From a virus: 64,000 nucleotides of DNA. The notes under the pieces were generated by a model, which was given only the letters and a program-made list of their open reading frames with translations, did not search any database and had not been told where the DNA came from. Of this stretch, positions 2,816 through 57,087 are shown piece after piece (position 1 is the first letter of the stretch; each line of letters begins with the position of its first letter). The stretch lies in IMG/VR virus record IMGVR_UViG_3300045988_095842; one strand, given 5' to 3'. Made by a program: the position numbers and the translations under genes.

Positions 2816-3043
2816 TCAATCGTCTGCCTTTTCATCTTCACTTTCCTCCTTGTACGGATCCGGAAACGGCATCCACGCGGTTACCACTGCCTTAAAACAA
2901 CGTTCTGTGACTTCAAGGTATCTCCATTTTTGATCATCATTCATAAATGCAGTCGTCACCGCATTCGCGGATGTAGTGACGATGACTGTTTCATACAGTT
3001 TTGGTAATCTCACCTCTACCGGAATCCATCTAAAATCACTCAT
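2816..3043 (-). CDS. DUF551-like phage protein
   Basis: W-IPVEVRLP near N-terminus and AWMPFPDPY near C-terminus, the usual DUF551 signature. Confidence 0.6.
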   Translation of the reverse strand: MSDFRWIPVEVRLPKLYETVIVTTSANAVTTAFMNDDQKWRYLEVTERCFKAVVTAWMPFPDPYKEESEDEKADD

Positions 3044-10012: not shown

Positions 10013-10088
10013 CTAAAATTTCTTGTGTAATTTTAGCGGATTTTTACCTAATTTTTTGGGTATACTCAGAAACATCGAGGAAAAACTA

Positions 10089-10670
10089 ATGGAATATCGA
10101 CTAGAAAAGCTAACTTCTGACATGCTCGCCGACTCGCGAATTTGCAAGCAGAAAAGCCAACAATATATGGCTAAAGAGCTTGGAAAATCGCTTTCGACAA
10201 TCCAAAACTGGGAGACTGGCGCGACTGTGCCAAAAATGACTGACATGCTCAGGTGGTTTAATGTGCTCGGAATCAATCCACTTCGGGCTTGTCTGGAATA
10301 TGTCCATCCAGTCATCTACAAAGGAATCCATGACGGCGATGACATTGAAAAAATCGATAAAGCCCTCCTACACTATATCCAGAATGTCGCTCCGGAACGA
10401 GAACGCCGTGAACTTGCTTTCTGCATTTTCGGAGAGACAGGATCTTCATGGTCTGCACAGCTTGATGAGCTGACCGCACGGAATCATCTGCCAATCCAAG
10501 ACAGAATCAGCATATCTAAGATGACTGTCGATACCTATGAACTGGACTCTGCGATAGGAAAGCTGCGATGCGATGACAAAATTCTTCCAGATATCCAGAA
10601 TGTGAAGGGCGCAATTTCAAAGTGCACAGAGTGTGCAAAAGACGGAAAAGATGCCTACCAAAACACATGA
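10089..10670 (+). CDS. XRE-family HTH regulator with uncharacterised C-terminal domain
   Basis: SQQYMAKELGKSLSTIQNWETGATVP HTH; ATG 10089 preceded by GAGGA; divergent from the 10012->7603 operon. Confidence 0.7.
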   Translation: MEYRLEKLTSDMLADSRICKQKSQQYMAKELGKSLSTIQNWETGATVPKMTDMLRWFNVLGINPLRACLEYVHPVIYKGIHDGDDIEKIDKALLHYIQNVAPERERRELAFCIFGETGSSWSAQLDELTARNHLPIQDRISISKMTVDTYELDSAIGKLRCDDKILPDIQNVKGAISKCTECAKDGKDAYQNT

Positions 10671-10787
10671 CATAAGAAAAGGCAGCCTCATCCGAGAGGC
10701 CGCCAAACAGGAAAAGAAATGACGAAGAAACGATACTGATATTATACGATTCTCCCTTCGTCTTTTCAATTTTGTGCAGGAAGAGCC

Positions 10788-10816
10788 TTGACTGATTGAA
10801 AAGTGCGGTGTATATA
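10788..10816 (+). promoter_or_regulatory. Sigma-A-type promoter driving the mini-CRISPR array
   Basis: TTGACT (10788-10793), 17-nt spacer, TATATA (10811-10816); AT-rich leader ends at first repeat. Confidence 0.6.
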
Positions 10817-10823
10817 TATAAAT

Positions 10824-10960
10824 ATGTTCCCTGCGTTAGCGCGGGTGACCCGTCCGGTTAGGTTGCAGCCTCCGGACTTTTTTAATGTTTCCCGCGTTAG
10901 CGGGGGTGACCCTTTAAAAATGATGGGCCAAGTGTTTCCTGCGTTAGCGGGGTATAAGAA
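10824..10960 (+). CRISPR. Orphan mini-CRISPR array, 3 type I-E-like repeats, 2 spacers (33 nt and 19 nt)
   Basis: R1 ATGTTCCCTGCGTTAGCGCGGGTGACCC (10824-10851), R2 ATGTTTCCCGCGTTAGCGGGGGTGACCC (10885-10912), R3 GTGTTTCCTGCGTTAGCGGGGTATAAGAA (10932-10960); CCCGC-GTTA-GCGGG hairpin as in I-E repeats; no cas genes in window. Confidence 0.7.
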
Positions 10961-10990
10961 AAGGAACCGGATTTTTCCGGTTCCTTTTTT
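10961..10990. terminator. Bidirectional rho-independent terminator between array (+) and 11001..11219 (-)
   Basis: GGAACCGG-n6-CCGGTTCC stem flanked by an A-rich stretch upstream and T6 downstream. Confidence 0.75.
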
Positions 10991-11000
10991 CTCTTTTCTG

Positions 11001-11219
11001 TCATTCCGGTCGCCACCATGCGGCCAGATCCGTTTCTTTTTCATGTGATCTTGCGAAATCTACCAGGTCATCCCACATCTTGTCCGGATCATCATATTTA
11101 TGGTAATCCAGCCCTGCGAACTCACAAAGGCCTTCATAAACCTCTGTGTCGAAGTCGTTCCAGCACTCTGCTTTTTCGATTGCTTTCATCGTTTCTTTAA
11201 ATTCTTTCAAAGTTGTCAT
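11001..11219 (-). CDS. small strongly acidic protein (anti-defence candidate)
   Basis: 72 aa with 20 D/E versus 9 K/R; downstream of RHH gene and operator-like repeats; convergent on the array. Confidence 0.6.
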   Translation of the reverse strand: MTTLKEFKETMKAIEKAECWNDFDTEVYEGLCEFAGLDYHKYDDPDKMWDDLVDFARSHEKETDLAAWWRPE

Positions 11220-11252
11220 ATCGTTCCATCCCTTCCGGCCTGTCGGCCTTGT

Positions 11253-11296
11253 TTGACTAAATCTTTGACTAAATCTTGGACTATCTTGAACTAAAT
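11253..11296. repeat. Four tandem 10-12-bp direct repeats (operator-like)
   Basis: TTGACTAAATCT, TTGACTAAATCT, TGGACTATCT, TGAACTAAAT head-to-tail between RHH gene and acidic-protein gene. Confidence 0.7.
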
Positions 11297-11560
11297 TTTT
11301 CTTCCCATCTTCTCAGATACCGCAGCCAAAATGTACTCACTCATACTTACCCCTTCCTTCCTGGCAGCTTCCCTGATGGCAGCTTTCTCTCCTTTTGGAA
11401 AGGCAAGGCTTATCCGATCATAATTTTCTCTTATATAGTCATTCTTGTACTTGACCTGATCAAACGGTTCTCCTTTTTTCTTCACGCTTCCTCCTTGATC
11501 TTGCCATGAAAACCTCTTATACTGCTGATAAGAGATTTGGGCGGCTTCTGGCAAGTCCAC
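11291..11560 (-). CDS. Ribbon-helix-helix (Arc/CopG-like) DNA-binding protein; likely true start GTG 11485
   Basis: KKKGEPFDQVKYKNDYIRENYDRISLAFPKGEKAAIREAARKEGVSMSEYILAAV fits RHH pattern; AAGGAGG precedes GTG at 11485. Confidence 0.6.
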   Translation of the reverse strand: MDLPEAAQISYQQYKRFSWQDQGGSVKKKGEPFDQVKYKNDYIRENYDRISLAFPKGEKAAIREAARKEGVSMSEYILAAVSEKMGRKI

Positions 11561-17975: not shown

Positions 17976-19262
17976 TCAATTTTTTTGTTGCTCTCGCATT
18001 TTCAGCGATTGCCGGTACTGCTCAGCCGGTGCAATGTACGTAAAATCTGGTGTACCATCAAAATTCTCGTGCACCACCTTCTCGATCTCTTTAAGAGATA
18101 CCCGGAAAAACTCTCGTCGCTGATTCACGAGATTCAGCTTTCTGTCCGCAAATGCATTGTGCAGCGCCGCCTCCAGCTTCGGTGCGTCCTTCGAAAAAAT
18201 CATTGCATGGATATCGAAATCGAACGGAACAGATGCATCTCCGAGCTCATCCACACGATCTTCCGGAACAAGGCGTCTCGTCATACCAATCTTATAGACA
18301 TTCTCACCGAACGCCCCAATATTGGAAATCACATATACATACCCGGCTTTCTGATTCGCCTCGCGGTAGTCCACATCCTTGAACTCCTTGTCAATCTTTT
18401 TAAGCTGATTTTCAAGTTCTTCCTTCTTTGCTGCCAAGGCTGCCTGTTCTTCCTGCGGTGCTTCTTTGATTTGCATCTTGAGTTGCTTCAGAGCGTTTTG
18501 ATAATGCTTCTGTTCTTTCTCCAGTTTCTTACGCTCTTCCTCAATTTCCCTGGCAAGCTTCTGCTCTTCACGCAGTCTCGCTCTGGCCTCTTTCTGCTCT
18601 TCCTTCTCTTCTTGCTTCTTTTCCTGGTACTCAAAAGCAAGATACAGCTCTTCAAGCTTTAGCTGATAGTAATCGGAAGTAATGCGAATCGACATGATTT
18701 CTCCAAGCTTCGAGATAGCATCTCTGGATCTCTCAATTTTCTTTTCGCTTGCTTCCAGATTACTGTACCGCACATGCTCTATAGCATCGTCACACTCTGC
18801 ATTGAAGGCACGAAGAAGCAACTTTTGCGTGTCGGCGACCATCTTCTTTCCTTTTCGCACATCACCATTGACCGACCACGAAGCGATCCCGGTAACAGCA
18901 GACCCATCTCGTATCATGTCTTTCTGCTCAGCACGTATGCCAAGGAGTTTTGCTTTATACTCTTCAGAATGCATAAACGGATAGTGCGGAGTATACAAGC
19001 CAAAACTCTGGAGAAGTACTTCGTCACGAGTTTCTACAAGCTCATCCTTGACTCCTTCCAGTTCTGCATTTTTAGCATCAATTTCGCTTTGTATTGCATT
19101 GCATGCATCCTTGAGCTTGTTGTACTGCGCAGTAGCCTTTTCAACTTCGCCATTTACTCTGGCAAGCTCTTCCTCAAGAGCAATAACCTTTTTGCCATCA
19201 TCTGGCAAAAGCTCGCGCAAACGCTCAATTTCCTTCTTTTCTTTAAATCCGAACAGTGACAT
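17976..19262 (-). CDS. DUF4041 + T5orf172/MUG113 (GIY-YIG-like) domain protein; moron
   Basis: LQSFGLYTPHYPFMHSEEYKAKLLGIRAEQKDMI..LLLRAFNAECD (DUF4041-like), coiled coil, GYVYVISN..VYKIGMTRRLVPEDRVDELG...EFFRV (T5orf172-like). Confidence 0.75.
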   Translation of the reverse strand: MSLFGFKEKKEIERLRELLPDDGKKVIALEEELARVNGEVEKATAQYNKLKDACNAIQSEIDAKNAELEGVKDELVETRDEVLLQSFGLYTPHYPFMHSEEYKAKLLGIRAEQKDMIRDGSAVTGIASWSVNGDVRKGKKMVADTQKLLLRAFNAECDDAIEHVRYSNLEASEKKIERSRDAISKLGEIMSIRITSDYYQLKLEELYLAFEYQEKKQEEKEEQKEARARLREEQKLAREIEEERKKLEKEQKHYQNALKQLKMQIKEAPQEEQAALAAKKEELENQLKKIDKEFKDVDYREANQKAGYVYVISNIGAFGENVYKIGMTRRLVPEDRVDELGDASVPFDFDIHAMIFSKDAPKLEAALHNAFADRKLNLVNQRREFFRVSLKEIEKVVHENFDGTPDFTYIAPAEQYRQSLKMREQQKN

Positions 19263-55360: not shown

Positions 55361-55729
55361 ATGGAATACAACCAGAAAGAATTTATGGAGCGCCTGCATG
55401 CCCTCATGTATGCTCATGGAATGAATAACAGAACACTCGCCAGAACGCTCGGAATGGCAGAAAGCATTGTATCCCATTGGGATGCAGGAACAGAACCCAA
55501 AATTACAACACTTGCAAAAATCTGCAAGCTGTTCCATGTCAACGCCGACTTCATGCTGTTCGGAAAAAGAAAAGAGCCGGCATCCACACTTATGATCGAA
55601 GACGTGAAGGAAAAAAATCTCGTTGAAGAATTCCGCCGGCTTACTCCAGATCAGCAGCTCATGGTTTACGGCTACACAAGTGCCTTGAATTACGGAAATC
55701 AAACTAAAAAGGCCAGAAAGGAATCATAA
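55361..55729 (+). CDS. Second XRE-family HTH protein of the lysogeny module
   Basis: NRTLARTLGMAESIVSHWDAGTEP HTH. Confidence 0.65.
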   Translation: MEYNQKEFMERLHALMYAHGMNNRTLARTLGMAESIVSHWDAGTEPKITTLAKICKLFHVNADFMLFGKRKEPASTLMIEDVKEKNLVEEFRRLTPDQQLMVYGYTSALNYGNQTKKARKES

Positions 55730-57087
55730 TGGCTTCCGTTGTTAAAAGGGGAGAGAACTACCGAATTGAAGTCTACTGCGGAATACAGGACGGAAAGAAA
55801 ATTCACAAGTACGCCACTTTCCGTCCGGACCCGGCAAAGTCAGAAAAGAAGAACCAGAAAGCTCTGGAAGAATTTATTTTCAAATTTGAGCAAAGGTGTA
55901 GAACCGGAGAAGTAGCATCCGACTCCACAACCTTTAAGGAGTATGCTCAGGAATGGATGAACAAATACCGTTCTGAACTTGAAAGCACAACGGTCTCCAC
56001 ATATATTGGTTGCCTGAACAAAGCCATTATCCCCTATATCGGATATATGAAGCTATCCTCCATTAAGCCGGCCACGATCCAAGACTTTGTAAACAGTCTC
56101 AGAAAGAAGACATACTCCTATAACAAGGGGCAGCGTAAGGGCCACTACTCGGAAGAATATATTCGGAATTGTAAAGCAGTCATCTCTTCCATCTTATCAA
56201 CTGCACAGGAAAACGGCCTTATAACATCTAATCCATGCTCCGTCAGAATCCGAAGAAATAAGAGTCAAAAAGAAATCGAAAGACAGGCGCACAAAATCCA
56301 GTGCTTTACTCCGGAAGAAGCTGCGCTCTTTTTGGATGTCATATCAAACCCGATCCCAATCACCGTACAAGAGCATACGCAAATACGAAAAGGTAAAAAG
56401 GTAATTATCAAAGCCCACGCACAAGGAACAATGAATGTGTCTCCTCAGCTCCAGACATTCTTTTGGCTTGCAATCTACTCAGGCTGCCGGCGCGGAGAAC
56501 TGATTGGCCTTACGTGGAAATATGTGAACTTTGAAAAAAACTGTATCACAATAGAAAGATCCCTTGCCTATACATCAAAATCTGGCGCCTATGTTAAAGC
56601 TCCAAAAACCAGCGCCGGATATAGGGACATTGATATGGTGCCATCAGTAATGGCAATGCTAAAGACTCAGAAAGAATCAGCAGAAGCATGGATGCAAAAC
56701 ATGGGAACAGCATGGAAGGGAAAACGGAATATTGAAGACTGCCCTGTGTTCATGCAGGAAGATGGAACGCCAATGTCCTTATGTACTCCAAGAAGAACCA
56801 TGCAGCGTGCAATTAACTGCTACAACGAATCCAGGAAGGAAGGTCAGCCAGAGCTCCCTTTAATCCGTCTACACGATTTGAGACACACTACAGCATCCAT
56901 CTTGATCTCCAGCAAGCTTGATCCTCCATCTGTGGCAAGCAGACTCGGCCACGCAGACCCGTCCGTGACCATGCGAATCTACAGCCACGCTTTTAAAAAC
57001 AGAGATCATCTAGCAAGCATGGCAATCCAGGAAAGTCTATCCAATGCCAGGAATGAAAATAATCAACCATCAGATCAGGGAAAATAA
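55729..57087 (+). CDS. int: Tyrosine recombinase (phage integrase)
   Basis: C-terminal HDLRHTTASILIS..VASRLGHADPSVTMRIYSH catalytic pattern; adjacent to att site. Confidence 0.9.
   Translation: MASVVKRGENYRIEVYCGIQDGKKIHKYATFRPDPAKSEKKNQKALEEFIFKFEQRCRTGEVASDSTTFKEYAQEWMNKYRSELESTTVSTYIGCLNKAIIPYIGYMKLSSIKPATIQDFVNSLRKKTYSYNKGQRKGHYSEEYIRNCKAVISSILSTAQENGLITSNPCSVRIRRNKSQKEIERQAHKIQCFTPEEAALFLDVISNPIPITVQEHTQIRKGKKVIIKAHAQGTMNVSPQLQTFFWLAIYSGCRRGELIGLTWKYVNFEKNCITIERSLAYTSKSGAYVKAPKTSAGYRDIDMVPSVMAMLKTQKESAEAWMQNMGTAWKGKRNIEDCPVFMQEDGTPMSLCTPRRTMQRAINCYNESRKEGQPELPLIRLHDLRHTTASILISSKLDPPSVASRLGHADPSVTMRIYSHAFKNRDHLASMAIQESLSNARNENNQPSDQGK

Follow-up and report, generated by a model that had tools for sequence, protein, structure and literature searches.

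In type I and type V-A CRISPR-Cas systems, the host RNAs CreA and CreR consist of two repeat-like sequences around a short pseudo-spacer and direct binding without cleavage. Viruses reportedly carry mini-CRISPR arrays as well: Medvedeva et al. and Faure et al. are said to have described, in 2019, virus-borne arrays that act in interviral conflicts and have full-length spacers matching related viruses. RNA anti-CRISPRs (Racrs) are promoter-proximal solitary repeats on mobile elements without cas genes, of which RacrIE1 and RacrIE2 were tested against the type I-E system of Pseudomonas aeruginosa (Camara-Wilpert et al., 2023; PMC10651486). Cracr arrays, as a preprint describes them, are viral regulatory RNAs that resemble CRISPR RNAs (crRNAs) and mimic CreR/CreA, an example being the I-E array of a Salmonella prophage; in published I-E Cracr arrays, the terminal repeat is aberrant and there are two to three pseudo-spacers, each of 21-24 nt, and Cracr arrays multiplex related targets (Liu et al., bioRxiv 10.1101/2024.10.29.618823). 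Here we describe a small repeat array in a 64,000-nt stretch of viral DNA (IMG/VR record IMGVR_UViG_3300045988_095842; this whole stretch is hereafter called the window), which represents nearly all of a 64.7-kb gut-metagenome contig. The array has three direct repeats of 28 nt (R1, R2, and R3) at 10824-10959 on the plus strand. We consider it probable, at roughly 0.6, that this locus is a gene for crRNA-like RNAs that would exploit Cas6e and Cascade of a host type I-E system, that is, an RNA anti-CRISPR of the Cracr/Racr class.

The locus shares with CreA/CreR the order of repeat-like sequence, short pseudo-spacer, and repeat-like sequence. However, those RNAs are encoded within CRISPR-cas loci, where they control the cas or toxin genes of their own system, whereas the window locus lies on a phage without cas genes. 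It likewise resembles the virus-borne mini-arrays in being a viral array without cas genes that would depend on host Cas proteins, but its only full-length spacer slot is a terminator without a detectable protospacer. The locus is a CRISPR-repeat mimic RNA borne by a mobile element and not a proven Cracr or Racr: it is not solitary, because it has three associated repeats, and no convincing match of the kind that defines a Cracr turned up in the sequences searched, and we therefore name it as a mimic RNA only. The class is already published and catalogued (Racrs in 2023, Cracr arrays in a preprint of 2024-2026).

Type I-E repeats with their own promoter and terminator

In the sense orientation, the repeats follow the I-E family pattern of GTGTTCCCCGC, a 4-nt loop, GCGGGG, and a 7-8-nt handle within 28-29 nt. 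A 20-nt degenerate pattern of the repeat core matched the three array sites only within the 64 kb, and was found in 0 of 100 shuffles. A genome scan with the R2 core (one genome per species) returned five loci. At locus L009, we found a genuine 58-repeat array with the repeat GTGTTCCCCGCGTTAGCGGGGGTGATCC and a period of 61 nt, to which R2 is identical at 25 of 28 positions; next to this array lies a gene for a Cas2(CT1978)-DnaQ fusion, the form that Cas2 takes in type I-E systems. A sequence with the same stem and loop on an IMG/VR viral contig, CTTTTCCCCGCGTTAGCGGGGGTGAT, is labelled I-E in the SRUFinder table (PMC10651486). When the loop was left free, a metagenome scan gave at least 120 loci, including at least about 35 period-61 arrays of the same repeat family, many from the human gut. 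In real gut I-E arrays, the terminal repeat ends in GGGGGTATTAT and the penultimate one in GTGACCC, and the endings of R3 and R2 are alike. Each of the three repeats, folded singly, forms a 6-7 bp hairpin with a tetraloop (-9.5 to -11.2 kcal/mol), and the substitutions between copies preserve pairing (C-G to U-G in R3, and pairing one base out of register in R1). At the level of sequence, these comparisons identify the array repeats as genuine I-E repeats in the sense orientation.

Hairpins in such a position could also have nothing to do with CRISPR and instead be sites for protein binding, terminators of transcription, insulators that separate convergent genes, or part of a small open reading frame (ORF). 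The region does lie between convergent genes and contains several hairpins, a gene caller places a 35-aa ORF at 10897-11004 on the minus strand, and the array locus is unmatched in Rfam under either threshold. However, Rfam also misses the genuine L009 array, and its silence on the window locus is therefore uninformative; the 35-aa ORF crosses the terminator hairpin and the repeats and is absent from relatives; and R2 matches a bona fide I-E repeat in the same orientation, with one exact 61-nt period in the array. We regard a non-CRISPR role as extremely improbable.

The array lies between two genes whose stops face it, an HTH_3 gene on the plus strand (10023-10670) and a convergent gene encoding a 72-aa protein. 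Its sigma-70-type promoter has a predicted start about 7 nt past the -10 box, at or just ahead of R1, and was not listed by our promoter scanner because the scanner rule requires T at position 6 of the -10 box. The -10 box ends 7 nt before R1, and consequently there is no leader. A bidirectional intrinsic terminator ends both the RNA gene on the plus strand and the operon of the 72-aa gene on the minus strand. The window also has no cas match, so that neither of these marks of a canonical CRISPR-Cas locus is present: no Cas family was among the best 25 families listed per library when 100 window ORFs were scanned against PADLOC, Pfam, and NCBIfam, a listing that weak matches could escape.

The start-to-start distance from R1 to R2 is 61 nt, as in a canonical I-E array (28-nt repeat plus 33-nt spacer), and that from R2 to R3 is 47 nt; the equivalent distance in the homologues described below is 44-49 nt. 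Judged by its predicted fold, spacer slot 1 is an intrinsic terminator that occupies exactly one spacer length. Its stem, GTCCGG-TT-AGGT-TGCA-GCCT-CCGGAC, lies at 10852-10877 and is followed by T6 at 10878-10883; the predicted structure, a bulged stem of 10 bp that closes a tetraloop and precedes U6, has a folding energy of -14 kcal/mol (z -3.5) and was equalled by 1 of 200 shuffles. This terminator in a spacer slot is the array's sole unusual feature, a minor testable oddity that opens no long-standing question.

A first-pass annotation, made from the letters of the window, had listed three direct repeats with a hairpin in each and GTGACCC in R1 and R2, and its coordinates and our folding agree. 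It gave the right sizes for a terminator-like spacer 1 (33 nt) and for spacer 2 (about 19 nt), and the promoter and bidirectional terminator that it had proposed were both located. The type I-E architecture that it had recognized is borne out by the L009 array beside Cas2-DnaQ and by the SRUFinder label on the core. The degenerate 3' end that it had noted in R3 comprises the last 7 nt, and the first 21 nt, the 3'-handle part, are intact.

A short-guide unit conserved on an accessory cassette

The array is an accessory element. Neither the array nor the 72-aa gene is present in five relatives with an identical endolysin (L156, L158, L160, L161, and L162), and a sixth (L157) retains a 75-aa homologue of the gene product and, at the site of the array, carries about 230 nt of unrelated DNA between the same flanks as the window cassette (TTGAYTGATTG and GTCGCCACCATGCGG). 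The absence in five relatives and the replacement in L157 indicate that the stretch from the -10 box to the terminator is exchangeable cargo in a hotspot that follows the lysis genes. An independent gut metagenome (L003) contains the locus with one single-nucleotide polymorphism.

Two further observations concern this hotspot. The insert in L157 (ERZ27229849 k119_179085) folds into strong hairpins, may contain a 20-aa ORF behind AAAGGAGG, and matches no Rfam family. In the array-less relatives (L156, L158, and L160-L162), extra 12-nt tandem repeats, (CCAACTCTGGCC)n, occupy the hotspot, and one of these hotspot TTGACT motifs serves as the -35 box of the array promoter.

Homologues of the 72-aa protein led to three more distant phages with a homologous RNA gene. 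In L175, this gene consists of R2 (28/28 identical), an identical 19-nt pseudo-spacer, and R3, and in L176 of R2, a 16-nt variant of the pseudo-spacer with a 3-nt indel, and R3; neither has R1. In L174, we found R1', a 21-nt pseudo-spacer, R2', a homologous 18-nt pseudo-spacer, and R3', with the window R1 aligning to R1'. The two L174 pseudo-spacers, GTGTAGACATGA and TTATAGACATAA, are similar to each other (TAGACAT[GA]A). All three RNA genes stand behind a TTGACT/17/TATTAT promoter, which the promoter scanner calls in L175 and L174 (10/12), and in the alignment neither the sequence nor the position of the -35 box varies. The terminator is kept in the three phages with an altered loop, and the R3 ending GGGGTATAA is shared as well. 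The terminator-shaped 33-nt slot was seen in the window's lineage only, and not in L174, L175, or L176.

Identity to the window in the R2-to-R3 core is 98.5% in L175 (versus 91.3% for the 72-aa gene and 83.3% for the promoter), 89.7% in L176 (79.1 and 88.9%), and 81.4% in L174 (73.2 and 83.3%). In every comparison, the core is therefore better conserved than the adjacent gene; it exceeds the promoter in L175 and L176 only, and the differences among homologues within the core are concentrated in the pseudo-spacer. This pattern suggests that what is conserved, and presumably selected, is a single crRNA-like RNA carrying a short guide. A side observation on the same unit is that the 3' end of the pseudo-spacer (GGGCC/GGGTC) could pair with bases of the 5' handle (GACCC/GACCT/GATCC) at 10906-10931 and at the equivalent positions in L176 and L174; both sides of the pairing vary across the three loci, and they may form a handle-occluding hairpin.

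The conservation also bears on the view that the array is a non-functional relic, a trailer-end fragment of a host I-E array that was acquired by illegitimate recombination and is decaying. Such a fragment would account for the irregular spacer lengths and for the endings of R2 and R3 (GTGACCC, then GGGGTATAAGA), which correspond to those of the last two repeats in real gut arrays, e.g., L049/L147. Moreover, the pseudo-spacer is identical at 16 of 19 positions to the 3' end of a real, leader-proximal spacer of the L064 array, flush with the repeat (0 of 500 shuffles), and this could mark a truncated ancestral spacer; the likeness may be due to chance, or may be a trace of descent from a real spacer. 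By contrast, a decaying fragment would hardly be expected to have a dedicated near-consensus promoter 7 nt from its first repeat and a terminator of its own, both kept in four diverged phages, an RNA core more conserved than the adjoining protein gene in 3/3 comparisons, and a hairpin maintained in every repeat copy. We consider a relic unlikely.

The L064 spacer in question targets a gene similar to PAPS reductase in unrelated gut phages. At 10192-10450 of L064, the four leader-proximal spacers form two overlapping pairs (1 with 3, and 2 with 4), which suggests recent primed adaptation. Spacers 1 and 3 match the PAPS-reductase-like gene in the gut phages L177 and L178; neither of these targeted phages shares any protein with the window phage.

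Comparison with Cracr and Racr RNAs

The likeness to Cracr arrays is mainly one of architecture. The locus is phage-borne outside a cas locus, has two to three repeat-like units, short pseudo-spacers (19 nt in the window, 16-21 nt in the homologues), and a degenerate terminal repeat, and would form a single transcription unit; the order of repeat, short pseudo-spacer, and repeat on a mobile element recurs in L174-L176, and the related pseudo-spacers of L174 recall Cracr multiplexing. Unlike in Cracr arrays, the window pseudo-spacer matches no CreR/CreA and no cas or creT promoter in the fetched I-E loci, and one full-length 33-nt slot is an intrinsic terminator, a feature that the accessible part of the preprint does not describe for Cracr arrays. 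A Cracr is defined by a match of at least 9 nt proximal to the protospacer-adjacent motif (PAM) to CreR/CreA, or by a match to a cas or creT promoter beside a PAM. The window, IMG/VR, and about 1 Mb of fetched I-E loci, the true host locus not being among them, gave no such match that convinced us.

The likeness to Racrs lies in a repeat mimic directly behind a promoter (no more than 250 bp upstream) on a prophage without a cas match, and R1 with its terminator would be a single-repeat small RNA. Unlike a Racr, the locus has three repeats within 136 nt, its single-repeat part was found in this phage only, and no known anti-CRISPR (Acr) protein is encoded next to it. The first-pass annotation had read the locus as a candidate for Racr-like action or for binding-only regulation. 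Of its parts, the CreA/Cracr-like R2-19 nt-R3 unit is the conserved one, whereas the Racr-like R1 and terminator spacer were found in this phage only. Its general reading of a promoter-driven I-E mini-array without cas genes is strengthened by the I-E repeat, the promoter and terminator, and the recurrence of the short-spacer unit in three phages, and the absence of cas genes that it had reported agrees with the listed matches for the 100 ORFs.

If spacer 1 were a working guide, the locus might be a viral mini-CRISPR, with host Cascade-Cas3 directed against a rival phage or plasmid and the lysogen thereby shielded. R1-33 nt-R2 has the exact canonical I-E geometry, the phage is temperate, so that a lysogen would benefit, and virus-borne mini-arrays of such a kind are already known. 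However, spacer 1 is a near-perfect intrinsic terminator, which is unlikely as an acquired spacer and ill-suited to Cas7 loading. A search for its protospacer, as the first-pass annotation had proposed, gave no second copy in the window and no match in IMG/VR (exact 26-mer), INPHARED phages, PLSDB, or the fetched loci, although this search was not exhaustive, as the genome and metagenome scans used the repeat as query. In addition, the unit of R1 and spacer 1 is missing in L175 and L176, and a 21-nt pseudo-spacer fills the slot in L174. The conserved pseudo-spacers are too short for Cas3 licensing by type I Cascade. A working mini-CRISPR is thus improbable.

It is also conceivable that the 19-nt guide serves as the phage's own repressor by directing host Cascade to silence, for example, a host or prophage gene in lysogeny. 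A short pseudo-spacer between intact handles is the architecture of binding-only crRNA-like RNAs, the phage is temperate, and the cassette sits at a moron-type site after the lysis genes. Nevertheless, the window holds no second site for the pseudo-spacer at up to 3 mismatches, no target was found, and the characterised viral examples all act on cas or creT promoters, and we consider such a role unlikely. IMG/VR matches to a pattern with 16 specified bases of the pseudo-spacer are chance-like by a rough estimate, for which the collection size was not given. A scan for TAGACA-type motifs and a search for CreR-like isolated repeats upstream of the fetched host arrays returned nothing beyond chance level.

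A possible mechanism for the mimic RNA

Cas6e cuts at the 3' base of the repeat hairpin and stays bound, and in systems with 28-nt repeats the mature crRNA carries handles of 7 nt at the 5' end and 21 nt at the 3' end. In the window, transcription would start at about 10822-10824, and host Cas6e would cleave each repeat past the hairpin (position 21). The conserved unit would then yield a 47-nt RNA composed of a GUGACCC handle (7 nt), the pseudo-spacer (19 nt), and a hairpin (21 nt). This RNA may assemble a shortened Cascade that binds DNA, cannot license Cas3, and competes with immune crRNAs. The shortened Cascade would probably repress a host promoter, either of cas genes or of a CRISPR-guarding toxin, as do the CreR/CreA mimics (Cracrs). 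Pure competition and promoter targeting are about equally likely for the 47-nt RNA; if the pseudo-spacer matched a host cas or toxin promoter, the RNA would be a Cracr, and otherwise it would act by sequestration only, like a Racr. R1 and the terminator slot, for their part, might produce an abundant single-repeat RNA of about 60 nt that titrates Cas6e and handle-binding subunits as a Racr does, and might also set the level of read-through into the conserved unit.

Several results weigh against this mechanism. With a terminator placed ahead of it, downstream of the promoter, the conserved unit should be expressed less. The pseudo-spacers have no convincing target in about 1 Mb of fetched I-E loci, even in scans that ignored every sixth base, and with no target in the window or IMG/VR either, the defining Cracr feature is therefore lacking so far. 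The drift among homologous pseudo-spacers (16-21 nt, with the 3-nt indel of L176) also fits unconstrained filler, and the 72-aa protein matches no known Acr. On the host side, a full array with the GTTA loop was found only in a Thiopseudomonas metagenome-assembled genome (MAG), and the exact repeat in no Bacillota host array of the genome scan. The integrase, SSB, RecT, and three further proteins of the phage matched phage-sized contigs only, and the host was not recovered. As to I-E pressure on the phage, the 832 spacers of the fetched I-E arrays gave only 13-18-nt matches to the window, which we take as chance.

A more elaborate idea, speculative and very unlikely, is that the terminator slot is a Cas-sensing attenuator, making the locus a composite Racr-Cracr operon with Cascade-dependent antitermination. 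In a host without Cas6e/Cascade, transcription would stop after R1 and leave a cheap single-repeat decoy. With Cas6e on R1 and Cas7 coating the nascent 33-nt slot, no terminator hairpin would form, and read-through would reach R2-19 nt-R3. The decoy would thus give way to the repressor only in hosts with an active I-E system.

Features of the array region and neighboring genes

Table 1. Coordinates of the repeat array, its signals, and other features of the window.
Feature	Position	Strand	Description
Promoter, sigma-70-type	10788-10816	+	-35 TTGACT at 10788-10793, 17-nt gap, -10 TATATA at 10811-10816
Swappable cassette	10799-11008	+	-10 box, array, and terminator; the -35 TTGACT belongs to the resident flank
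R1	10824-10851	+	ATGTTCCCTGCGTTAGCGCGGGTGACCC; I-E-like, hairpin register shifted by one base, GTGACCC as 5'-handle part
Spacer slot 1	10852-10884	+	33 nt; intrinsic-terminator-like hairpin
R2	10885-10912	+	ATGTTTCCCGCGTTAGCGGGGGTGACCC; most canonical copy; would provide the Cas6e hairpin and the 7-nt 5' handle GUGACCC
Pseudo-spacer (spacer 2)	10913-10931	+	19 nt, TTTAAAAATGATGGGCCAA
R3, terminal repeat	10932-10959	+	GTGTTTCCTGCGTTAGCGGGGTATAAGA; first 21 nt intact (hairpin, future 3' handle), last 7 nt degenerate
Bidirectional intrinsic terminator	10957-10990	both	15-bp stem, TTTT loop, T-runs on either strand
72-aa gene	11001-11219	-	acidic, three-helix protein; convergent with the RNA gene
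Tyrosine integrase	55729-57087		basis of the temperate call

The 72-aa gene adjoins the array in the window, L174, L175, and L176, and elsewhere also occurs without an array. Its product has no Pfam or PHROG match, none of its 13 homologue clusters is named, and the AlphaFold2 model (predicted local distance difference test score 78) has no fold match in PDB. The protein is a possible anti-defence partner of the RNA gene.

On the other side of the array, the minus strand at 10681-10769 has a near-consensus promoter (TTGAAA/17/TATAAT, 11/12, from 10769 to 10741) followed by a minus-strand terminator (10704 to 10681). A transcript of this block would be very short and would be antisense to the last part of the HTH gene, at its 3' end; the block is kept in all relatives, whether or not the array is present. 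Beyond the 72-aa gene, iteron-like direct repeats (TTTGACTAAATC and TTTGACTATC) lie at 11243-11300, upstream of a gene for a 64-aa NikA/Arc-like protein.

The phage and its presumed host

The window phage is temperate and tailed, with genes for portal, capsid, terminase, and tail proteins, holin, endolysin, RecT, and SSB. Its nearest named relative is Faecalibacterium phage FP_Brigit, with a portal protein 50% identical, and the host is presumably a gut Bacillota species rather than an enterobacterium. Type I-E systems are reported from F. prausnitzii, in clades other than A (PMC12716062). A near-identity DNA search gave no match among phages, and likewise none in PLSDB; with the endolysin as query, the phage search returned unannotated faecal phages only. 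The window endolysin is also present on contigs of 180 kb and 217 kb (ERZ27229849:k119_179085 and ERZ27269966:k141_285286).

Other genes in the window are related to defence and counter-defence. A protein with DUF4041 and T5orf172 domains, encoded at 17976-19262 on the minus strand among tail-fibre genes, matches the anti-phage defence gene PD-Lambda-1 (E 1e-157). The ORFs further include one for a C-5 cytosine methyltransferase, which has a ParB-like gene on either side (mapped in L170), and a RelA/SpoT-family match (2e-19), and polyvalent-protein domains (LPD29, DUF3846, and DUF5688) are located at about 4.8-7.3 kb. From these predicted domains, the gene content suggests that a large counter-defence and early region adjoins the array hotspot.

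Type I-E repeat RNAs on other mobile elements

Promoter-driven I-E repeat RNAs are common on mobile elements of human gut metagenomes. We found a single repeat with a terminator in a human faecal phage (L010), one or two repeats, often inside a stem formed by the 5' leader and 3' tail, in IMG/VR gut phages (L149-L153), and promoter-driven I-E repeat RNAs in a Peptoniphilus genome (L006) and a Bacillota MAG (L007). For L007, integration next to a tRNA gene was suspected from the sequence and was unconfirmed by ARAGORN. A conserved family of promoter-driven I-E mini-arrays with three repeats, on contigs resembling integrative and conjugative elements (ICEs), comprises L032, L034, L037, L039, L048, L067, L074, L088, L099, L115, L117, L125, L127, L129, L131, L137, and L145, with L047, L058, L098, and L121 as variants. 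It occurs on more than 20 contigs from metagenomes, several with a human gut label, in the context of an extracytoplasmic function (ECF) sigma factor with DUF4367, integrase-like, and TIR-TPR genes. Its layout is ATGTTCCCCGCATAAGCGGGGGTGACCC, 64 nt, ATTTTCCCCGCGTAAGCGGGGGTGATCC, and 33 nt, closed by a degenerate repeat. Because the last part of the 64-nt spacer and the central part of the 33-nt spacer are complementary, a stem enclosing the middle repeat is possible.

L010, L150, L151, L153, and the ICE-borne loci (L032 to L145) share a promoter, one to three repeats (often starting with ATGTT and ending with GTGACNC), and a terminator, with no cas genes in the fetched stretches. They differ from the window locus in spacers, neighbors, and RNA end-structures, and the true homologues are L174, L175, and L176 only. 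In an unrelated high-GC viral contig (L001; IMGVR_UViG_3300034159_000110), we observed two I-E-like mini-arrays of two repeats each, at 499-600 and 2921-3007, in opposite orientations and one of them with the canonical 61-nt spacing.

The phages compared offer a natural series for working out which parts of the locus are needed, from no cassette (five relatives) through one-unit (L175 and L176) and two-unit (L174 and the window) forms to an alternative insert (L157). RNAs of this type could blunt I-E tools, which bears on phage therapy and on CRISPR-based microbiome editing. If the mimic RNA is active, a temperate phage lineage of gut Bacillota would join the elements that disarm or reprogram type I-E CRISPR-Cas by RNA, not protein.

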